A stretch of 60,607 nucleotides of DNA, filler included. It is 6 parts of 6 records of this genome, joined end to end, with 100 filler letters (N's around TTAATTAATTAA, not from the genome) between each part and the next. Parts side by side here need not be neighbours in the genome. Positions count along the whole stretch, not along the records: positions 23,719 to 38,817 come from DRR723986_669; 5 more parts are not named here. One strand, written 5' to 3'. The notes under the pieces are model-generated. The model worked only from the letters and a program-made list of their open reading frames with translations. It did not search any database and was not told where the DNA came from. Shown here one piece after another: positions 32,147-42,523 of this stretch. The translations under genes and the position numbers were made by a program. The stretch's first letter is position 1, and each line of letters opens with the position of its first letter.

Positions 32147-32971
32147 ATGGACGATTTCACCCAATACCTGCCGCTTTTGGGATTGATCCTGCTGATCGGG
32201 GGCTTCGCGGGCATCGTGGCGGGGCTGCTCGGGGTGGGTGGTGGCATCATCCTTGTCCCGGCCTTTTTCTTTGCGTTCTCCTCACTTGGCTATGACACGC
32301 CGGAACTGATGCAGATCTGTCTGGCGACGTCCTTGGCGACGATCGTTGTGACCTCGCTGCGATCTGTCATGGCGCATAACCGCAAAGGCGCGGTGGATTG
32401 GGAGATCCTGAAAGGCTGGGGTCCGGGCATTGCCATTGGCGCGGCACTTGGGGTGGCTGCGGCCTCGGGCCTCAGGAACGAGGTACTGATGGGTATTTTC
32501 GGGGTGCTGGGGCTGTGCGTCGGGCTTTACCTGGCTTTTGGCCGCCCCGATTGGCGGCTCGGAGATGAGATGCCGGGCGGGGCGGCACGGGCGGTTGTGT
32601 CCCCGGCGCTTGGCTTTCTGTCGGTGTTGATGGGCATAGGTGGCGGCAGTTTCGGCGTGCCGCTGATGACACTCTATGGTCTGCCCATCCACCGGGCTGT
32701 GGCCACGGCGGCGGGGTTCGGCGTAATCATCGCGGTGCCCTCGGTTCTGGGCTTTCTCTTTATCGGCGGCGCCACCGAGGGGCGCCCACCCTATACCGTC
32801 GGTCAGGTCAACCTGATTGCCTTCGTGGTGATCGTTGCGATGACGATGATCACAACACCCTGGGGCGTAAAGCTGGCCCATGCGATGGACCCCAAGCCGC
32901 TGAAGCGGTTCTTTGCGGTGTTCATCATGATCATGGCGGTGAACATGCTGCGAAAGGCGCTCGGATATTGA
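32147..32971 (+). CDS. Sulfite exporter TauE/SafE family protein
   Basis: GLLGVGGGIILVP, ATSL, GIGGGSFGVP and multiple TM helices. Confidence 0.9.
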   Translation: MDDFTQYLPLLGLILLIGGFAGIVAGLLGVGGGIILVPAFFFAFSSLGYDTPELMQICLATSLATIVVTSLRSVMAHNRKGAVDWEILKGWGPGIAIGAALGVAAASGLRNEVLMGIFGVLGLCVGLYLAFGRPDWRLGDEMPGGAARAVVSPALGFLSVLMGIGGGSFGVPLMTLYGLPIHRAVATAAGFGVIIAVPSVLGFLFIGGATEGRPPYTVGQVNLIAFVVIVAMTMITTPWGVKLAHAMDPKPLKRFFAVFIMIMAVNMLRKALGY

Positions 32972-33750
32972 GCTGGCTCGCCACCGGATATCAGGTCTTC
33001 GGGCCCGACCCGGAGGTGATGAATTGGCTGGCCAGCGCCGGGCCTGCGGCCTTGGCCACGGCACGTGATCCGGCGCTGCAAAAGGCGTGGCTGCGCCATG
33101 GCGGCACCTGGTTTGCCGGGGTCAACGTCCTGGACAATGACAGCGCAGGCCGGGTGGCCGGGGGAACGGCCTTGGGCGGCGCGGCGCTTGATGCGGCGCA
33201 GGCGGTGACGGGCGTGTTGCCGCTCGATCCCGGTCAGGTCTCGGTCACCTATCCCGGCTATCCCCGTCAGGACGAATGCGAAAGCGATGCCAACCACCGC
33301 TACCGCACGTCGCGCGACGCGGCGCATCTGGACGGGCTGCTGCCGGTCGGCCCGGACCGGCGGCGGATGATCAGGGAACCGCATGGCTGGATCCTCGGCC
33401 TGCCGGTGACGACGTGCGGGGCAGGGGCCGCGCCGCTGGTGGTGTGGGAGGGCAGCCACAAGATCATGCGCGCCCGGCTTGGTGCGGTGCTGGAACGCCA
33501 CGCCGAGTCGGACTGGCCCGAAGTGGATCTGACCGACGCCTATCACGCCGCGCGGCGTGAGGTGTTCGAGACCTGCAAGCGCATCGAGTTGCCCGCCCGA
33601 CGGGGAGAGGCGACGCTGCTGCACCGGCTGGTCCTGCACGGGGTCGCGCCCTGGGATGACTCGGCAGAGGCCCACTCCGATGGCCGCGCCATTGTCTATT
33701 TCCGCCCGCATCTGCCCGGTGGCATCGGCGATTGGCTGCGCCTGCCGTAA
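32968..33750 (+). CDS. Hypothetical protein, possible 2OG-Fe(II)/phytanoyl-CoA dioxygenase fold
   Basis: AHLDG (HxD), WEGSH, distal LHG and R..VYFR. TTG start overlapping the upstream stop. Confidence 0.65.
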   Translation: MSWLATGYQVFGPDPEVMNWLASAGPAALATARDPALQKAWLRHGGTWFAGVNVLDNDSAGRVAGGTALGGAALDAAQAVTGVLPLDPGQVSVTYPGYPRQDECESDANHRYRTSRDAAHLDGLLPVGPDRRRMIREPHGWILGLPVTTCGAGAAPLVVWEGSHKIMRARLGAVLERHAESDWPEVDLTDAYHAARREVFETCKRIELPARRGEATLLHRLVLHGVAPWDDSAEAHSDGRAIVYFRPHLPGGIGDWLRLP

Positions 33751-33755
33751 CCCAT

Positions 33756-33818
33756 GGGGGCGGGGGGCGGGGGGCGCGCCGTCGACGGCGCGCATAGGCT
33801 TTGCGTCGACGCAAAGCC
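33756..33818. repeat. G-tract plus two perfect GTCGAC-centred palindromes
   Basis: G5-C-G6-C-G6, then GCGCGCCGTCGACGGCGCGC (33774-93) and GGCTTTGCGTCGACGCAAAGCC (33797-818). Confidence 0.8.
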
Positions 33819-33826
33819 CACCCACC

Positions 33827-35134
33827 TCACCGTTCCGGGATCAGGCCCCTTGGGTTGAACCGCAGCATCAGCAGCAGGAACAGACCCATCGTCAGCAGGC
33901 GCATATGCGCGGCCGAATCGATCAGGTGCTGACGCAGCCCGTTATCCTCGGCCATGCCCGCCGTGATCGTCTGCATCAGCCACAGGCCAATCGGTTCCAC
34001 CATGATCCAAAGCCACCAGATCAGGAAGCCGCCCAGAACCGCGCCCCAATTGTTCCCCGATCCGCCGACGATCACCATAACCCAGATCAGGAAGGTGAAA
34101 CGCAGTGGGTTATAGGTGCCGGGCACCAGCTGGCCATCGAGCGTGGTCATCATCGCGCCCGCGATGCCGCAGACGGCCGATCCGATGATGAAGATCTGCA
34201 AATGCCGCCTGGTCACGTCCTTGCCCATGGCCTCCGACGATACCTCGTTGTCGCGGATCGCGCGCATCATCCGGCCCCAGGGCGATTTCAGCGCCATTTC
34301 GGACATCCAGATCAGCAGCAGCAGCACGGCCGCAAAGAGCCCCGCATAGCTCAGCTTGACCACCACGGACGAGGCGGTCACCGGATCCGCCCCGAACCGG
34401 TCTGCCAGCGACAGGAACCAGTCCGCCGCCTGCAATTCGACCTCGTAGGGCACCGGACGGGGCAGGCCGGTCACGTTTTTGACGCCACGCCCAAGCCAGT
34501 CCTCGTTCTTCAGGACCGCCAGAATGATCTCGGCAATGCCAAGCGTCGCGATCGCCAGATAGTCCGAGCGCAGCCCAAGCGCGGTCTTGCCGACGATCCA
34601 CGCCGCGCCCGCCGCAAACAGCCCACCCACGGGCCATGCCAGGATCACCGGCAGGCCAAGCCCGCCCAGATAGCCGGTCAGCGCCGGATCGACCGCCTCG
34701 ATCGCATCGCGGGCAGGATCAAAGATCGCCCGGTAGATCATGAACCCCGCGACCAGCACCGCCAGCATGATCACCAGACGCAGCAATCCGCGCGGCATCT
34801 TCTTGTAGATCATGACCGCCGCAAAGATCGACGCGGCCCCGGCGGCCAGGGCCAGCAGGATGCGCGGACCACCGGCGGCCCATGCCTCGGGCACCGGCGG
34901 CATTGCAACCAGAACGGCGGCCAGCCCGCCAAGCGCGGTAAAGCCAAGGATACCGACATTGAACAGCCCCGCGTATCCCCATTGCATGTTCACCCCAAGC
35001 GCCATGATGGCCGAGATCAGCCCCATGTTGAGGATCGTCAGCGTGGTGTTCCACGACTGCATGAAGCCGGTGACGATGAACAGCAGCGCCACCAGACCGA
35101 ACAGCAGCAGGTTCTTGGTGTTGATCTGCGTCAT
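33827..35134 (-). CDS. livM: Branched-chain amino acid ABC permease (LivM-type)
   Basis: LGVNMQWGYAGLFNVG, LRSDYLAIATLG, SPWGRMMRAIRDNE and IVGGSGN. Confidence 0.9.
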   Translation of the reverse strand: MTQINTKNLLLFGLVALLFIVTGFMQSWNTTLTILNMGLISAIMALGVNMQWGYAGLFNVGILGFTALGGLAAVLVAMPPVPEAWAAGGPRILLALAAGAASIFAAVMIYKKMPRGLLRLVIMLAVLVAGFMIYRAIFDPARDAIEAVDPALTGYLGGLGLPVILAWPVGGLFAAGAAWIVGKTALGLRSDYLAIATLGIAEIILAVLKNEDWLGRGVKNVTGLPRPVPYEVELQAADWFLSLADRFGADPVTASSVVVKLSYAGLFAAVLLLLIWMSEMALKSPWGRMMRAIRDNEVSSEAMGKDVTRRHLQIFIIGSAVCGIAGAMMTTLDGQLVPGTYNPLRFTFLIWVMVIVGGSGNNWGAVLGGFLIWWLWIMVEPIGLWLMQTITAGMAEDNGLRQHLIDSAAHMRLLTMGLFLLLMLRFNPRGLIPER

Positions 35135-36141
35135 ACCGATTTCCCCTTGAAGAGGCCCGTGGGCTTGAACAGAAGCACAATCAGCAGGATCGCGAAGCTG
35201 ACGGCGAATTTATAGTCGGTGGACAGAAGTTGCAGCAGCCCCTCGGGTTCCCACGCCTCCGGCAGCAGGTGGTTCACCACCCGGCGGAACGCATAGGTGA
35301 CGGTGATCTCAGAGAACGCAATCAGGAACCCGCCCGCGATGGCGCCCAGAGGATTGCCAAGACCGCCGACAATGGCCGAGGCGAAGATCGGCAGCAGCAG
35401 CTGGAAATAGGTGAAGGGCTTGAAGCTCTTGTCGAGCCCATAGAGCACCCCTGCCGTGGTCGCCAGCGCCGCCACGATGATCCAGGTGACCAGCACCACC
35501 TTTTCGGGGTTGATCCCCGACAGAAGCGCCAGATCCTCGTTGTCGGAAAAGGCGCGCATGGATTTGCCGGTGCGGGTCCGGTTCAGGAACCAGAACAGCA
35601 GCACCACGCAGATCAGCGCCACCACCACGGTGATCCCCTGGCTGGTGCGGATGGCAAGCCCTTCCTCCAGCCCGGTCATCTCGCGGAAGGTGCGGGCCGA
35701 GATGATGAACCGCTCGCCATCGGCAAAGCGTTGGTCATCCACCCCGATGATGAAGCGCACCAGCCCGTTCATGATGAACATGACGCCAAGCGAGGCGATC
35801 ACATAGATCACCGGCTTGGCCTTTTGCTGGCGGTAGAACTTGTAGACGACCTTGTCGGTCCCGATCAGCAGCAGCGCCGTGGCCGCGATGCCAATGGGCA
35901 GCGCCAGCAGCGCCGTTGGCAACGGCCCAAGCGAAATGCCCGCCGCCTGCAAGGCCCATGTCACAAGGATCGTCACCATGGCCCCGAAGGCCATCGTGTC
36001 GCCATGGGCGAAGTTCGAGAACCTCAGGATCCCGTAGATTAGCGTCACGCCAAGCGCGCCAAGCGCCAGCTGCGCGCCATAGGCGGTCGCTGGAACGATG
36101 ACGAAATTGGCAAGCACGACAATGGCGTTCAGGACATCCAA
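35131..36141 (-). CDS. livH: Branched-chain amino acid ABC permease (LivH-type)
   Basis: GVTLIYGILRFSNFAHGD, TRTGKSMRA and IVGGLG. TTG start 7 nt after AAGGAG. Confidence 0.9.
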   Translation of the reverse strand: MDVLNAIVVLANFVIVPATAYGAQLALGALGVTLIYGILRFSNFAHGDTMAFGAMVTILVTWALQAAGISLGPLPTALLALPIGIAATALLLIGTDKVVYKFYRQQKAKPVIYVIASLGVMFIMNGLVRFIIGVDDQRFADGERFIISARTFREMTGLEEGLAIRTSQGITVVVALICVVLLFWFLNRTRTGKSMRAFSDNEDLALLSGINPEKVVLVTWIIVAALATTAGVLYGLDKSFKPFTYFQLLLPIFASAIVGGLGNPLGAIAGGFLIAFSEITVTYAFRRVVNHLLPEAWEPEGLLQLLSTDYKFAVSFAILLIVLLFKPTGLFKGKSV

Positions 36142-36204
36142 CTCATGTCTCCTTGACGGGGCCGGATCGGCGGGAAAGGGCGCGGTGTGTCGGGGCGGTT
36201 TGCA

Positions 36205-36588
36205 TCAGCTGATGCCCTCGCAAAACCCGTAACCGGTCGTCACATCGGTTGCGGAACTGACGTTGTGATTGCTGTAGACGGCGCGCCCGTTCGGATACAG
36301 CGTCATCATGATCGTGCTGAAAGCCGGATCATGCAGCACGAAGACCTGCACCTCGTCCCCGGGATCGGACAAGGCCCGGGCTTCGGCGCCACCCGATTCC
36401 GCGGTCAGGAAAATCCAGGCATCGCTGTTTTCGGAGCGGGCGATCTCGATCTCGGCATCGGACGGGTCGCAGCCCCCGGCGACGCAGGCCACGTCGAACC
36501 GGCATTGAAACCCGTCCTCTGCCCAGGCCGGGGCCGCCAACAGGCCCAGAACAATCATCGGGGCGACGATTAGGGCGGTTCGCCTCAT
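36205..36588 (-). CDS. Secreted four-cysteine protein, paralog 4
   Basis: Signal peptide ending APAWA, then CRFDVACVAGGC, TLYPNGRAVYS and GFCE. ATGA overlap with paralog 3. Confidence 0.8.
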   Translation of the reverse strand: MRRTALIVAPMIVLGLLAAPAWAEDGFQCRFDVACVAGGCDPSDAEIEIARSENSDAWIFLTAESGGAEARALSDPGDEVQVFVLHDPAFSTIMMTLYPNGRAVYSNHNVSSATDVTTGYGFCEGIS

Positions 36589-37025
36589 TCGCCGGCCTCC
36601 GAGCCCATGTCTTCGCCTGCCACGTCTTCGCACAGGCCGAAACCGGTCACGGACCGGGGCCGCGCCTGCGGCTGATGCAGGGTCACGACAACCTGACCGC
36701 TGTCGGCGATGCTGACCATCTGCACGGCCTGCGTGTCGTGATTGGCGAAAATCAGGCTGCGCAGGCGGGTGGGTTCAATCGACCCCTCGGGCGCAAGAAT
36801 ATCGGCGGCCAGCACGTAGTCCGAAGGCAGATCCTCCTCCCAAAGAACCCGCCAACTGCCATCCTCCTGCTCGGTGATGTTGATCTCCTGACCCCAGTCC
36901 TGACAGGGGTTCGATTCGATGCAGATCACAGCCATGTTGCAGACCCGCTCAACGGGAAGGTGCTGCGCCGCGACCGGCAGCGGGATCAGAAAGGGCAGGG
37001 CGGTCAGAACCGGACGGATGGACAT
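36585..37025 (-). CDS. Secreted four-cysteine protein, paralog 3
   Basis: Signal peptide ending PVAA, then CNMAVICIESNPC, SIADSGQVVVT and GLCE. TGATG overlap with paralog 2. Confidence 0.8.
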   Translation of the reverse strand: MSIRPVLTALPFLIPLPVAAQHLPVERVCNMAVICIESNPCQDWGQEINITEQEDGSWRVLWEEDLPSDYVLAADILAPEGSIEPTRLRSLIFANHDTQAVQMVSIADSGQVVVTLHQPQARPRSVTGFGLCEDVAGEDMGSEAGE

Positions 37026-37417
37026 CAAAGAGCCTCGCATTGGCCGAAGGCGGTGCGCTGAACGGGCCCGCGCCCCGGCTGGTAGAACTGGCGGTTGTGA
37101 ATGGCCTCGCCGGTGTCGAACATCGTCACCGCTTCGCGGTCGGCATGGCCAAGGGTGATATAGCTGCGGGTCATCGCATCTGTGGGCGTCACGTCGCGCA
37201 CCGGCGCGCTGATCCCGTCATAGGTGAACCACAGGCCCGCCTCGTGGTCGATCGGGGCAATCTCGATGGTGAAGGTGTCGGGCAGGCAGTCATCGTCCTG
37301 CCCGGCACAATCGGTCGTGAAGAGGCACAGAAGCGGCACGGTATCCGCCATGGCAGGAAGACCCGCCATGGCCAGCGTTGCCGCTGTCGCCCCGATGATG
37401 CCCCCGGCCCGTGTCAC
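37025..37417 (-). CDS. Secreted four-cysteine protein, paralog 2
   Basis: Signal peptide ending PAMA, then CLFTTDCAGQDDDC, TMFDTGEAIHN and GQCE. GTGA overlap with paralog 1. Confidence 0.8.
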   Translation of the reverse strand: MTRAGGIIGATAATLAMAGLPAMADTVPLLCLFTTDCAGQDDDCLPDTFTIEIAPIDHEAGLWFTYDGISAPVRDVTPTDAMTRSYITLGHADREAVTMFDTGEAIHNRQFYQPGRGPVQRTAFGQCEAL

Positions 37418-37815
37418 TTGCTGCCGCCACCCGCGCCGCCGGTGGTTTCCGTGCAGGTGCCGTTCAGCCGATAGTGGATCAGGTTGTCGCCAAGCGCCAT
37501 GTTGCCGGTGTAGATGATCCGGCCCGCATCGGTGATGGTGCCCAGTTCCACGCCTGCCGTATTCGAGAAGAAGAAGTGCATCGCGCCGTCGCTTTCAAAC
37601 ACTTCTCCATCGAAGAAGTTGCCCTCGCGCTGCTCCATCTCTCCGATGCCGGTGGTGGCGTTCAGAGTGAAGTTGTAGGGGATGTCCTCGGCAACGCAGC
37701 CGCCGCCATTTTGCCGGCAGGCCTCGTTCATCGTGCATTCATAGGTGCGGTCCTGCGCCATGGCCGGGGCCGCCATCAGGGTGGCCAGAGCGGCCGTTGT
37801 CAGAATGTGTTTCAT
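37414..37815 (-). CDS. Secreted four-cysteine protein, paralog 1
   Basis: Signal peptide ending PAMA, then CTMNEACRQNGGGC, TITDAGRIIYT and GTCTE. Strong AGGAGGT RBS formed by the last livF codons. Confidence 0.82.
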   Translation of the reverse strand: MKHILTTAALATLMAAPAMAQDRTYECTMNEACRQNGGGCVAEDIPYNFTLNATTGIGEMEQREGNFFDGEVFESDGAMHFFFSNTAGVELGTITDAGRIIYTGNMALGDNLIHYRLNGTCTETTGGAGGGSK

Positions 37816-37817
37816 AA

Positions 37818-38648
37818 TTAACCTCCTAGGAAAGACTTGCGAACTTCCGGGTCGGCCAACAATGCCTTGCCGGTATCTGTATAGGCGTTGCGCCCCTGTA
37901 CGAGCACATAGCCTTTATCTGCAATTTCAAGCGCTTGTCGGGCGTTTTGTTCCACCATCAAGATGGAAATCCCGGTGCGCGCGACCTCGATAATACGATC
38001 AAAAAGTTCATCCATGACGATGGGGGAAACGCCCGCCGTCGGTTCATCCAGCATCAACAGCTTGGGCTTGGTCATCAGCGCCCGGCCCACGGCCACCTGC
38101 TGACGCTGGCCACCCGAAAGCTCGCCCGCCGGTTGCAGGCGCTTTTCCTTGAGGATCGGGAACAGGTCATACACCTGCGCCATGGTGCCCTGAAAATCAT
38201 CGGTGCGGATGAAGGCGCCCATTTCGAGGTTCTCTTCGACCGTCATCGAGGTGAAGATGTTCGAGGTCTGGGGCACGAACCCCATCCCCTTGGCCACGCG
38301 CGCCTGCGGCGTCAGCTTGGTGATATCCTCACCATCCAGCACCACACGGCCCTGCCGCAGGTTCAGCATCCCGAAGACGGCCTTCATGCCGGTCGATTTG
38401 CCCGCGCCGTTGGGGCCGACGATGACCGCGATTTCACCCTTTTCGACGGCGATGGTGCAGTCGTGCAGAATGTCGGCACCCTTGCCATAGCCGCCGGTCA
38501 TGTTTTCGCCGATCAGAAACGGCTGCCCCGCTGCCGGACTGGTCTTCGTCCCCTGACCCTTGGCCGGGGTCAGCGTACCGATCCCGTCGGGGTTGCCAAT
38601 CGAGCGGTCCTTGTTGCCGCGATCGTCCTGATAGGGGTTGCCGGTCAT
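37818..38648 (-). CDS. livF: Branched-chain amino acid ABC ATPase
   Basis: GPNGAGKST, LSGGQRQ, LMLDEPTAG and VEQNA. Confidence 0.93.
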   Translation of the reverse strand: MTGNPYQDDRGNKDRSIGNPDGIGTLTPAKGQGTKTSPAAGQPFLIGENMTGGYGKGADILHDCTIAVEKGEIAVIVGPNGAGKSTGMKAVFGMLNLRQGRVVLDGEDITKLTPQARVAKGMGFVPQTSNIFTSMTVEENLEMGAFIRTDDFQGTMAQVYDLFPILKEKRLQPAGELSGGQRQQVAVGRALMTKPKLLMLDEPTAGVSPIVMDELFDRIIEVARTGISILMVEQNARQALEIADKGYVLVQGRNAYTDTGKALLADPEVRKSFLGG

Positions 38649-38817
38649 GCCTCCACCTTGTCCTTGTTCTTCAGGCCGGTGCCAAGATAGGCCTCGATCA
38701 CCTGTTCATTGGCCTTGATCTCATCCAGCGTGCCTTCCGCCAGCACCTTGCCCTCTGCCATGCAGATGACGGGGTCACAGATCTTGTCGATGAAATCCAT
38801 GTCGTGTTCGATCACGA
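38645..38817 (-). CDS. livG: Branched-chain amino acid ABC ATPase, 3' fragment
   Basis: Manual translation VIEHDMDFIDKICDPVICMAEGKVLAEGT...VIEAYLG. ATGA overlap with livF. Confidence 0.88.
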
Positions 38818-38917
38818 NNNNNNNNNNNNNNNNNNNNNNNNNNNNNNNNNNNNNNNNNNNNTTAATTAATTAANNNNNNNNNNNNNNNNNNNNNNNNNNN
38901 NNNNNNNNNNNNNNNNN
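38818..38917. other. Artificial contig spacer
   Basis: N44-TTAATTAATTAA-N44. Confidence 0.97.
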
Positions 38918-39720
38918 GTGTAGAGGATAAACAGCGGATCTTCGGCGCCCATCTCGGCCGGGGTAAATGTGTCAGAGGCCGATGCCATCAAGGCGTTGCA
39001 ATCATGGTCGCGGTCGGTCCAGGTGGTCTGGCTGCCTGTGCGTTTGACCACCAGACATTTCACACTGTCCTTGCAATGCAAAAGCGCGGTGTCGGTGTTG
39101 GATTTGAGCGGCGTTTCTCGACCACCTCGGGGGGCGTAATCCGCGGTGATGACAACTTTTGCGTCACAACCGTTGATACGCGCCCCCAAAGCGTCCGGGG
39201 AGAACCCTGCAAAAACAATAGAATGAATGGCCCCGATCCGGGCGCAGGCCAACATGGCGTAGGCGGCCTCTGGGATCATGGGAAGATAGATAACAACACG
39301 GTCGCCTTTGGACACACCCAGATCCGTCAGGACATTGGCCATCTTGCAGACCGATGTATGCAGATCCTTGTAGGTGATGTGCAAAGCCGCATCTTTGTTC
39401 GGATCGTCTGGCTCCCAGATGATTGCGGTCTGATCACCACGGGTTTCCAAATGGCGATCGATGCAATTGGCGCTGACGTTCAGCGTGCCGTCCTCAAACC
39501 AGCGGATATCCACGTTGCCCGGTGCGAAGGAGGTGTTTTTGACGGTCTGGAACGGTTTGATCCAATCAATCCGTTTGCCTTCCTGCGCCCAAAAGGCATC
39601 TGGATCGTTCACCGACTGTGCATACATACGCGCATAATCCTGAGCGTTTACATGGGGCGGGCGGGATGTGTCTTGGGTTGCCGACGGGTTGGCCGCGTTC
39701 AGCGGATCTGCGGTTGTCAT
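38918..39720 (-). CDS. acs: Acetyl-CoA synthetase, 5' part
   Basis: [37 protein letters not shown] and [18 protein letters not shown]. Confidence 0.96.
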
Positions 39721-40096: not shown

Positions 40097-41143
40097 TCAA
40101 GCCGCGATTGTTTGGCCCCTTCCGGCACCCGATGACAAAGGCGCACTTGCGGCGCGCATTGCGCTGACCAGGAATTCCGCCTCACTGCACGTAAGCATCA
40201 TCCTCGCACTCTGTGCAGTTGCCGTCATCGGTGCTTGCCCGACCGAAGGGAAAATGCGCGAAATCTCGGTGATTGATTGTTTTGGCAAAACACCAAGCGC
40301 CGTGTCACCAAGGAAGAAGCTTTCGGTTGGCTGGTTCTCTGCCAAGAGCACCTCGTGCTGACCCAGCAAGATGTGATAGTAGGTTACCTCGCGGGCGCTT
40401 TGGTGAAAGATATCACGATGGTTGACCAGTGATTTTGCTGGCACCCAGACATCGGGTTGATCAAAATGCAAACTGGCCAATGGAGAGCTGACCATCACGC
40501 GGTGCTGCGGCGACAGGCAAAGCGGGCGTTCGTTGCTGAGAAAACCGGGGGTGATCACGACCGGCGCCGATGATCCGGTTGCAATCACCGTTCGTTTGCC
40601 AATCCACAAAATCTCTTGTGCGCTGTTATCAAGGGTTGTCACTTTGTCGCCCACCCGCAGCGTTTCCACCGGGACGTTTCCGCGCGGTGTCAGAATGTTG
40701 GTGCCGCCGGTAAAGCAGAGATAGCTAAAACTTTCGGAATCCTGATCACTGGTCCAGAAAGCATTGGGGTTGGATGGGCCACCGCCATTGCTCCAATACC
40801 ATTCCTCAAGATCATGGTTCGGTGTCCAGACCATCTGGACCAATTCGCCGGTGTTGGAGTTGATCCCTTCAAACACAATCGCGCCCTGCCCCGGCTGCAA
40901 ATAGTCAGAGCGGATGACAGTGGCATCCTCAATGTTACCGCCACCGAGACCCTGCCAAGAGATATCGTAGGTCTCGCCCGTTTCAAAATTACGCGGATCA
41001 GCGTCACCTGTGTTCGAGGTGACCGTCAGATTTGTGGCCGAACTTGGCGGATGGTCAAAATAACTGCGATCCGATTGCGCGTTCACATTTGACCCGCTCG
41101 CAACTGCGAATTCGTGATCAGGTGGCGTGAACGTCATAATCAT
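40097..41143 (-). CDS. Hint (BIL-B / Hint_2) domain protein
   Basis: CFTGGTNILTPRGNVPVETLRVGD, SPQHRV and YYHILLGQHEVLLAENQPTESF. GAAAGGA RBS before ATG 41143. Confidence 0.9.
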   Translation of the reverse strand: MIMTFTPPDHEFAVASGSNVNAQSDRSYFDHPPSSATNLTVTSNTGDADPRNFETGETYDISWQGLGGGNIEDATVIRSDYLQPGQGAIVFEGINSNTGELVQMVWTPNHDLEEWYWSNGGGPSNPNAFWTSDQDSESFSYLCFTGGTNILTPRGNVPVETLRVGDKVTTLDNSAQEILWIGKRTVIATGSSAPVVITPGFLSNERPLCLSPQHRVMVSSPLASLHFDQPDVWVPAKSLVNHRDIFHQSAREVTYYHILLGQHEVLLAENQPTESFFLGDTALGVLPKQSITEISRIFPSVGQAPMTATAQSARMMLTCSEAEFLVSAMRAASAPLSSGAGRGQTIAA

Positions 41144-41380
41144 CGGATCAATCCTTTCAGGGCCTCCGGCCTCCCTCGACCGGTGGCGTTGCAAGGGCGA
41201 TAAGCAGACGCTTTGGCCATTCCGTGATTGAAATGGGGCAGGAATGGGGCAACGTCTCTGGCAGGACCACAAAATCTTTAAATGTTTTGACAAAGGCAAA
41301 ACGTGCGAAAAGCAGATTTGAGGGGCTCACTGGCCAAAGAATGGTTTGGTGATCGGGGGCGCATTGGCTAGCGTGATCAA

Positions 41381-42523
41381 ATGACAGATGCCTTGCCCCC
41401 GTTTTATGCTTCCGTTCCGGTACAGGATGATTTTGCCGCCCTGTCGGACACTGAAAACTACACCTCTTTGCCAGAGGATTGGTGGGTCGGCACATCAGAC
41501 ATCGTTGGATCAACGCAAGCCGCCGCCGCAGGGAAATACAAAACCGTCAACATGGTTGGGGCGGCTGTGATTTCTGCCCAGATCAACGCACATGGCGGGG
41601 CGGCGTTTCCCTATATCTTTGGCGGCGACGGCGCTGGGTTTGCCGTTCCGCCCGAATGGAAAGACCGCGCGGCGCAGGCCCTGGCGGCGGTTCAGGTCTG
41701 GGCGGCGGAAGAGTTTGAGATGTCCCTGCGGATCGGCATGGTGCGCATCTCGGAGGTGCGGGCCGCGGGCCATGATGTGCGCATTGCCCGGTTTGGTGCG
41801 GCGGCAGGCGTCGATTACGCGATGTTCGCGGGCGGCGGGTTGGCTTGGGCAGAGGCGCGTATGAAGGATGGCGCAAACGGCCTGCCGCCCGCGCCGCCGG
41901 GCACACAACCTGACCTCACCGGATTGTCGTGCCGTTGGAGCCATATGCCAAGCCGCTATGGCGCGATCCTTTCGGTGGTGATCATGCCCGCCCGCAAGGC
42001 AGAAGACCCCGCCTTTGCAAAGCTGGCCAATCAGGTTGTTACCTTGGCAGGCGGCCTGGACCGGTCCGGCCATCCCGGCGACACCAGCGGCCCCGGCGTG
42101 GACTGGCCGCCTGCTGGCGCCCAGCTTGAAGCCCATGCACAACACGGTTCGGGATCGCTTGGCGCGGCGCGGCGCAAAGCGTTGTTTGAAAGTTTCGTTG
42201 CGTGGCTGTTGATCAAGACAGGTCTCAAGCTCGGCGGCTTCGACGCCCGCCGCTACCGCCGGGTCGTGGGGCAAAACGCCGATTTCCGTAAATTCGAAGA
42301 CGGGCTGAAGATGACCGTTGATTGCGACCCTGAAACAGAGGCCAATTTGCGTGCACTGCTGGACAAGGCTGCGGCGAAGGGGGTCGTCAGATATGGCATT
42401 CACGCCCAGTCAGAGGCGATGATGACCTGCATTGTGCCGTCCATTATGACAGATGATCACGTGCATTTTGTCGATGGTGCCTCGGGCGGCTATACCGTCG
42501 CCGCGCAAGCCATCAAGGGATGA
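41381..42523 (+). CDS. DUF3095 family protein (adenylate-cyclase-like N-terminus)
   Basis: SDIVGST...GKYKTVNMVGAA, FGGDGA, LTGLSCRW, DFRKFEDGL and HVHFVDGASGGY. Confidence 0.85.
   Translation: MTDALPPFYASVPVQDDFAALSDTENYTSLPEDWWVGTSDIVGSTQAAAAGKYKTVNMVGAAVISAQINAHGGAAFPYIFGGDGAGFAVPPEWKDRAAQALAAVQVWAAEEFEMSLRIGMVRISEVRAAGHDVRIARFGAAAGVDYAMFAGGGLAWAEARMKDGANGLPPAPPGTQPDLTGLSCRWSHMPSRYGAILSVVIMPARKAEDPAFAKLANQVVTLAGGLDRSGHPGDTSGPGVDWPPAGAQLEAHAQHGSGSLGAARRKALFESFVAWLLIKTGLKLGGFDARRYRRVVGQNADFRKFEDGLKMTVDCDPETEANLRALLDKAAAKGVVRYGIHAQSEAMMTCIVPSIMTDDHVHFVDGASGGYTVAAQAIKG

Follow-up and report, generated by a model that had tools for sequence, protein, structure and literature searches.

The window analysed here is a stretch of 60,607 nucleotides (nt), filler included, in which contigs of one genome are joined end to end. 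It carries an operon encoding an ATP-binding cassette (ABC) importer of the liv type, and four small genes, designated A to D, are wedged between its ATPase gene livF and its permease gene livH (Table 1). A first-pass annotation of this DNA had described an array of four diverged, secreted four-cysteine paralogs embedded in the operon. The four co-oriented genes are indeed present, on the minus strand like the liv genes. They belong to one unnamed family of exported proteins which is almost confined to the Rhodobacterales.

The genes are closely packed. The end of livF, ...CTAGGAGGTTAA, is followed by TT and then by the ATG of A, and an AGGAGGT sequence, the ribosome-binding site of A, lies two bases before, inside the livF end. 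A and B overlap by GTGA, the GTG start of B lying on the stop of A. The overlaps TGATG (B/C) and ATGA (C/D), which had been proposed together with the two former junctions as signs of translational coupling, require that C and D begin at their shorter starts: C measures 146 amino acids (aa) from the ATG at 37023-37025 (MSIRP) and 151 aa from an alternative ATG at 37040, and D measures 127 aa from the ATG at 36586-36588 (MRRTAL) and 142 aa from an alternative start at 36633. The stop of D is separated from the TTG start of livH by 63 nt which include a Shine-Dalgarno-like AAGGAGA sequence, and the two genes are uncoupled here. Contigs from two isolate RNA-seq libraries of one sample cover positions 36233-37821 (1589 nt, 6 differences), 35898-36988 and 37239-37925. 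The D-livH and A-livF junctions are both spanned, suggesting that the array may be transcribed with its neighbours; such contigs show neither strand nor transcript ends, and a DNA carry-over is possible. A metatranscriptome run covers parts of the array only and carries no weight here.

The four precursors exhibit a basic n-region, a hydrophobic core and an A-x-A-type end, as expected for Sec-type signal peptides, and none of them includes a lipobox cysteine. Mature domains are 95-125 aa long and acidic (pI 4.05-4.31). Each protein has exactly four cysteines, arranged as C-x5-C-x6-C (A and B), C-x5-C-x5-C (C) or C-x5-C-x4-C (D) near the N-terminus and included in a G-x-C-E (B, C and D) or G-T-C-T-E (A) motif at the C-terminus. 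The signal peptides, the cysteine pattern and the acidity of the first-pass description are thus all recovered, and the hairpin segments that it quoted match the family consensus L-T-x4-G-x-A. Little else is shared, as it had also noted: BLASTP similarities between the paralogs are weak (E 3e-3, 2e-5 and 3e-5).

Family definition and predicted fold

A hidden Markov model (HMM) was seeded with A to D and iterated over 50 orthologous livF-livH gaps, read as stop-to-stop frames. Of the 166 forward frames 81 were accepted, and of the 178 reverse frames only 3, so that the kinship of A to D is not due to chance and the four genes define a real family. The three reverse-frame matches, all from Ruegeria, carry signal peptides and the terminal cysteines and look genuinely reverse-oriented (Table 1). 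In an alignment of 76 members, restricted to those with four cysteines, these four residues are invariant, and the Gly of G-x-C varies very little. Nearly every column other than the cysteines and two glycines shows high entropy, and hydrophobic and polar residues alternate strictly along the strands. Four cysteines are present in 66 of 84 relatives and two in 16. Two-cysteine members seen in alignment retain the first and the last, a pattern in favour of C1-C4 and C2-C3 pairing.

When 1.84 billion cluster representatives were searched with a profile built from 88 mature domains, 815 were retrieved at E <= 1e-3 (200 at E <= 1e-10), almost all 105-165 aa long. The small members, as far as their source names were seen, are always called 'hypothetical protein' and come from Rhodobacteraceae or Paracoccaceae. 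The two top rows, of 2619 and 1963 aa, are giant proteins; the name of one refers to a gliding-motility or repeat protein, and another large match (1239 aa) is called a Bacteroidota 'tandem-95 repeat protein'. These score through 11-18 weak stretches and were treated as compositional or repeat artefacts rather than relatives. An alignment search for longer or fused forms (255-2000 aa) returned none at E <= 1e-5, which is weak evidence. Two metagenome representatives have an unusual architecture: P0115 is a natural tandem with two family domains in one 258-aa protein, and in P0112 a His/Asp-rich repeat, HGHGDGHVDGHEDGHDDG, separates the signal peptide from the barrel. Gene A has 14 homologs at 66-93% identity, none of them named. 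The D allele of the window has only 2 relatives (99% and 65%) among 5.8 billion clusters.

No named family was recognised in the libraries consulted, in agreement with the suggestion that the system was undescribed. With A to D as queries, no Pfam family is found at E <= 1 and no PADLOC or PHROGs family (anti-phage defence and phage families, respectively) at E <= 0.1. Four weak NCBIfam matches (E 0.025-0.13, 11-13 bits) lie far under the cut-offs and are taken as chance. No Pfam family recurs among the 88 members, the best PDB chain in a profile search is no better than E 0.03, and a search of the ESM Atlas gave only 'hypothetical protein' clusters (score 0.90). Plasmid and phage collections gave no tblastn match with mature C or a high-scoring T1 member, these single-sequence queries having a limited reach. 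A full-text literature search, at the level of result lists, returned nothing relevant on the family or on its arrangement.

Two of the four proteins, A and D, were modelled using AlphaFold2 with the family alignment. Both are confidently predicted to fold as eight-stranded up-and-down beta-barrels. Mature A (111 aa) reaches a predicted local distance difference test (pLDDT) value of 90.8 and a predicted template modelling (pTM) score of 0.81, only its Gly-rich tail being disordered; mature D (103 aa) reaches 91.8 and 0.82, with strands 3 and 4 of only 5 residues. The strands of the two models occupy corresponding positions and their VIA-align lists are alike. The C1-C4 disulfide probably joins the first and last strands, thereby closing the barrel, while C2-C3 would staple the first hairpin. 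The disulfide-stapled barrels anticipated from the sequence are supported by the two models and by a cysteine pattern that fits two disulfides.

Structural similarities are broad. The best Foldseek rows are soluble barrels. VIA-align, whose own note indicates that scores of this range are common for such folds, reports OmpW (Z 10.6 and 10.0, with a chain of 183 residues), the 103-aa Burkholderia protein 5hal (Z 10.3 and 9.2, root-mean-square deviation 2.6 and 2.3), designed barrels and avidins (Z 8-9) and the Cap15 barrel (Z 8.9 and 8.6). Periplasmic inhibitors of lysozyme or of peptidoglycan hydrolases, of the same size, follow with PliC 4mir (Z 8.0) and PliC-St 3oe3 (Z 7.8), then PhiA 7dpy (Z 6.4-7.9) and ACP 6gq4 (Z 6.4).

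MliC/PliC, PhiA and ACP resemble the family in compartment and size (about 85-100 residues when mature) as well as in their eight-stranded barrel, 77-85 residues being aligned at Z 6.4-8.0. In an alignment of genuine Rhodobacterales MliC, one cysteine near each terminus is invariant, as in our family. However, MliC has a single cysteine pair while the A-D family has two. None of 88 family members matches the MliC Pfam model PF09864 at E <= 1, whereas this model detects genuine MliC in 43 of 121 Rhodobacterales genomes, with one or two each. These are single genes, away from the liv locus where both were listed. Both MliC loop motifs (S-x-S-G-A-x-Y, as in SASGARY, and W-x-T-K-G, as in WWTKG) are present in 25 genuine Rhodobacterales MliC sequences and were not seen, by eye, in A to D or in the family consensus. 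Profile-profile comparison by hhalign of 88 family rows with 25 MliC rows gives a probability of 0.24% (E 0.26, 6 columns aligned). Membership of MliC/PliC was consequently rejected, as the Pfam model, the motifs (by eye) and the profile-profile comparison all failed. The PliC fold scores sit inside the generic-barrel background, and the terminal cysteine pair is analogous in both families. The MliC/PliC-like architecture put forward in the first-pass annotation is thus kept as a generic small barrel and not as a family assignment. Avidin, lipocalin, other calycin-type barrels and 5hal also share an eight-stranded up-and-down barrel of similar size, but these matches do not rise above the same background. 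Membership of the avidins was rejected as well, with no Pfam match and a similarity at fold level only; the Pfam lipocalin models gave no match either. No ligand-binding motif was recognised in the family.

Distribution, gene order and allele replacement

A LivH query retrieved 80 loci, all from Paracoccaceae/Rhodobacteraceae, the closest named organism being Nioella nitratireducens (92%). Of these, 77 contain both livF and livH and are considered orthologous. Their livF-livH gap ranges from 5 to 2561 nt and is quantised in steps of about 350-450 nt. Copy number varies as follows: no family gene in 30 loci, one in 26, two in 12, three in 5, four in 2, and five and six in one locus each. Nine family genes are found in a locus hand-picked as multi-copy. 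Named isolates with copies include Nioella nitratireducens (4), Leisingera (1) and Ruegeria arenilitoris or atlantica (2-3). The gap is 70 nt or less in 26 of the 77 loci, with LivH 77-92% identical. Where members are present, the last one has a stop that shares a single nucleotide with the livH start in 24 of 47 loci. The family is neither invariant nor already characterised, and its link with liv operons is clear.

An order-wide sample includes 122 of 401 genomes with matches at E <= 1e-5 and, among the matches listed, those of each genome are clustered on one contig. Matches are rare in the wider samples: 4 of 401 genomes in the class-wide one, of which 2 are already in the order sample, and 8 of 401 in the phylum-wide one, all 8 also in the order sample. 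The class-wide sample includes two members with two cysteines located away from liv genes. In one lineage, Vannielia litorea and relatives, an extra member is inserted between livH and livM; in a related locus, L131, livH and livM overlap directly. The livF-livH junction also hosts open reading frames (ORFs) that fall outside the family HMM, in three loci (Table 1).

Single-linkage clustering at 35% identity divides 159 members into 41 types, whose order is fixed: only 2 of 75 ordered type pairs were seen in both orders, and the order is conserved across genera. The array of the window reads T7-T5-T2-T1. T1, the type of D, comes last and adjoins livH in 32 of the 33 loci that carry it. It is also the commonest single-copy type (9 of 26). 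In a tree of LivF, LivH and LivM, lineages without any copy occur at scattered positions, and sister taxa are unlike in the number or type of their copies.

Three congeners, whose LivF, LivH and LivM are 95-98% identical to those of the window, were compared slot by slot. Slots A (87-95% identity to the three congeners) and C (85-86%) are conserved. Slot B (48, 70 and 49%) comprises two allele groups in the genus, and slot D is only 34-38% identical, the D proteins of the congeners being 84-93% alike. Across genera, gene C is 42-57% identical. At the nucleotide level, identity to the congeners is about 0.8-0.97 over livF, A, C, livH and livM and falls to 0.45-0.55 over D (all three congeners) and to 0.53-0.67 over B (two of the three); one B allele exhibits an internal break-point. 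Gene-wide ratios of nonsynonymous to synonymous substitution rates (dN/dS) among congeners are 0.01-0.04 for livF, 0.02-0.03 for livH, 0.04-0.10 for livM, 0.02-0.09 for C and 0.13-0.19 for A. They reach 0.27 for B (within an allele group) and 0.36-0.71 for D. Cassettes are thus replaced and proteins evolve faster at some slots, and gene-wide positive selection is unsupported. The diversifying cassette of the first-pass annotation holds for copy number, sequence variability and the tie to the liv operon, but not for positive selection (dN/dS 0.02-0.71).

The liv operon and its surroundings

A spacer of N's with ttaattaattaa in its middle (38819-38917) marks a contig join and interrupts livG, so that the upstream part of the operon is missing from the window; loci of relatives were used for comparison. 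The orthologous Nioella locus (L001) has the order livK (Peripla_BP_6), livG, livF, four small genes, livH and livM, with a complete livG including BCA_ABC_TP_C upstream of livF. Its binding protein has its nearest matches among Leu/Ile/Val-binding proteins (E 2.5e-26). The flanking genes are ordinary members of the families found in canonical LIV/HAAT importers (LivJ/K-H-M-G-F), but the gene order, K-G-F-array-H-M, is different. None of the transporter parts reaches an NCBIfam equivalog cut-off, and the LivF and UrtE matches of the livF product lie under theirs. At its N-terminus LivF is extended by about 45 residues, many of them Gly, Asn, Asp and Pro, the ABC domain beginning at about residue 61 according to Pfam; in many orthologous loci the LivF tblastn match begins only at residues 30-65. 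A scan of positions 33700-38818 for terminators and promoters is uninformative, with 4 terminator-like sites where 1.6 +/- 1.7 are expected and no promoter-like site.

Since the spacer is an artificial joint, the genes beyond it are not neighbours of the liv operon. The other ORFs noted in the window are given at the end of Table 1. The one just downstream of livM has a counterpart of the same length at the same place in the Nioella locus (L001 10405-11187), adjoining TauE and Dus genes.

Table 1. Coordinates of the array, of the liv genes and of related or neighbouring features. Positions without prefix refer to the window; L numbers designate loci of other genomes.
Feature	Position	Strand	Description
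Gene A, type T7	37414..37815	-	133-aa precursor; 20-aa signal peptide; 4 Cys; Gly-rich C-terminal tail
Gene B, type T5	37025..37417	-	130-aa precursor; GTG start; 4 Cys; variable slot
Gene C, type T2	36585..37025	-	146 aa from MSIRP; 4 Cys; acidic tail; conserved slot
Gene D, type T1	36205..36588	-	127 aa from MRRTAL; livH-proximal; 4 Cys; hypervariable slot, rare allele
livG, 3' end	38645..38818	-	ATPase; cut by spacer; TGA overlaps livF ATG (ATGA); sequence read
livF	37818..38648	-	second ATPase, 276 aa; Pfam ABC_tran E 3.1e-32
livH	35131..36141	-	permease, 336 aa; Pfam BPD_transp_2 E 2.1e-40; TTG start; own AAGGAGA
livM	33827..35134	-	permease, 435 aa; Pfam BPD_transp_2 E 1.3e-31; start overlaps livH stop
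Reverse-strand 2-Cys array members, three Ruegeria loci	L049:6644-6907, L052:6515-6778, L080:6644-6907	-	opposite strand to liv genes, within operon
Extra member between livH and livM, Vannielia litorea and relatives	L031:9008-9373, L123:5126-5563		overlaps livH stop and livM start
2-Cys member away from liv genes, class-wide sample	L112:1510-1890	-	adjoins another small exported ORF
2-Cys member away from liv genes, class-wide sample	L113:1501-1791	-	adjoins small exported ORF; next to a phage-integrase-family gene and a helix-turn-helix (HTH) protein
Non-family junction ORF	L015:7546-8001		151 aa; no signal peptide
Non-family junction ORF	L055:7568-7993		lipoprotein-like (LVAGC); 3 Cys
Non-family junction ORF	L077:7588-8001		Lys/Ser-rich; foreign-looking composition
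ORF downstream of livM	32968-33750	+	260 aa; opposite strand; without Pfam or NCBIfam match
Acetyl-CoA-synthetase-like ORF	38866-39720	-	truncated by spacer; translation runs into X
Hint_2 protein, other contig	40097-41299	-	400 aa; PF13403, E 1.2e-47; N-terminal half without Pfam match
DUF3095 protein	41381-42523	+	full-length; E 1.1e-132

Possible roles of the array proteins

To our knowledge, no extra periplasmic component has been described for HAAT/LIV importers. The array genes are dispensable for transport, since 30 of the 77 orthologous loci, with a conserved LivH, have no family gene. This rules out an obligate LIV/HAAT subunit and agrees with the initial statement that canonical LivKHMGF systems need no such subunits.

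The best reading, which we propose tentatively, is that they are periplasmic proteins of the binder or inhibitor type for which the operon junction is a permissive expression site. Probably soluble in the periplasm, they would be binding modules made together with the transporter and may act like inhibitor or immunity proteins, in the manner of the small PliC/MliC/PhiA-style barrels or of orphan immunity arrays. Each type might neutralise a different periplasm-entering protein or harmful molecule. The junction would then constitute a permissive and well-expressed landing site, without the products being obligate parts of the transporter. We favour this reading because a third of the orthologous operons lack array genes, because type diversity and allele turnover resemble those of immunity or inhibitor repertoires, and because the closest periplasmic structures of the same size are peptidoglycan-hydrolase inhibitors. 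A permissive site is suggested by the unrelated ORFs at the junction and by the distant two-cysteine relatives found outside the order and away from liv genes, one of them beside an integrase gene. Orphan immunity-gene arrays likewise consist of small, diverse, compartment-matched proteins in an ordered layout, with presence/absence and allele polymorphism between close relatives. Unlike them, the liv array lies inside a housekeeping ABC importer operon and is translationally coupled to it, and no effector, secretion-system or mobile-element gene adjoins it.

Several observations weigh against this reading. Known immunity arrays usually adjoin effector loci, and the livK-livM region and flanks examined include no target, toxin, effector-like, secretion-system or mobile-element gene. 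The linkage with the operon is tighter than a hitch-hiker needs: in five of five whole genomes every family match lies inside the liv locus, and for the best 30 order-wide loci livH is directly downstream in 29, livF being upstream in the 30th. The second insertion point, between livH and livM and coupled on both sides, is a further tight link with the operon. Slot C is constrained like the transporter, which fits a conserved partner, and no gene-wide dN/dS exceeds 1. Fold matches are generic, with nothing at E <= 1e-3 in Foldseek against PDB and with outer-membrane and designed barrels in the top VIA-align rows (Z about 10), and sequence comparison reveals no link with MliC. Finally, the RNA-library contigs are compatible with carried-over DNA. 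The absence of a toxin neighbour, the tight operon linkage and the constraint on slot C together keep a role associated with the importer alive.

Such a role could be that of accessory periplasmic parts which capture substrates or pass them on, or which influence the docking of LivK or the gating of LivHM, the different types tuning the substrate range. We regard this as somewhat unlikely. It would explain why the location is exclusive to one orthologous operon, why translational coupling to livF and livH is common and why a second insertion point exists in one lineage, as well as a purifying selection on slot C equal to that on the transporter; calycin and avidin-like small barrels, moreover, often bind small ligands. 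However, it is hard to reconcile with the 30 of 77 operons that lack the genes while the transporter is still highly conserved, with a copy number of 0 to 9, with the wholesale replacement of D and B alleles beside LivF, LivH and LivM that are 95-98% identical, and with the lack of a visible conserved polar pocket motif.

In a bolder proposal, which we consider rather doubtful, the array would encode a new importer-associated periplasmic module of exchangeable gate-keepers or guards working physically with LivK or LivHM. They would select the periplasmic molecules, toxins or phage proteins that gain access to the importer, conserved slots docking on the transporter and swapped slots facing a changing outside partner. 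If true, HAAT-family importers would gain their first accessory periplasmic component, and a housekeeping operon would harbour an arms-race locus. A complex prediction of LivH, LivM and mature C, made without family alignments, scored 0.00 and counts neither for nor against binding.

Proteins acting purely as guards or decoys, shielding the importer or its binding protein against toxins, Trojan-horse antibiotics or phages which use it as an entry route, would account at once for the strict operon linkage and the allele turnover of D and B. This is improbable: no agent exploiting this transporter is known, the literature search at result-list level having returned nothing relevant, and many relatives keep the transporter without any guard. 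Equally small is the chance that the genes are near-neutral hitch-hikers which arose at a permissive junction and, after duplication and drift, have hardly any function left, if any. The unrelated ORFs at the junction, the frequent loss of the array and the high dN/dS of D and B are what this would produce, but signal peptides, cysteines and open frames are kept across 159 members, slots C (dN/dS 0.02-0.09) and A (0.13-0.19) are constrained and type order is conserved across genera. Miniature eight-stranded outer-membrane barrels (OmpW/OmpA/OmpX-like) instead of soluble periplasmic ones are very improbable: OmpW, designed transmembrane barrels, OmpA, OprF, NspA and PagL do occupy the top VIA-align rows and the strands alternate strictly, but strands 3 and 4 of the D model have 5 residues, mature domains measure 95-125 aa, the C-terminal residues of A to D (K, L, E and S) provide no aromatic beta-signal, four cysteines are conserved, acidic residues are many and Foldseek ranks soluble barrels best.

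Among marine heterotrophs the Rhodobacterales are a major group, and amino-acid importers belong to their core physiology. The present analysis defines an unnamed protein family with a confidently predicted fold and a clear cysteine signature. Its genomic behaviour is unusual, with an ordered array of variable length and swapped alleles wedged between the ATPase and permease genes. Its members are small, soluble-looking and easy to express, and natural strains with 0, 1, 4 and 9 copies are available for comparison. If the proteins are protective binders, they would point to a so far unrecognised antagonism, aimed at the periplasm, between marine bacteria or involving their hosts. If their work is tied to the transporter, they would represent a new type of component for a textbook transporter family.

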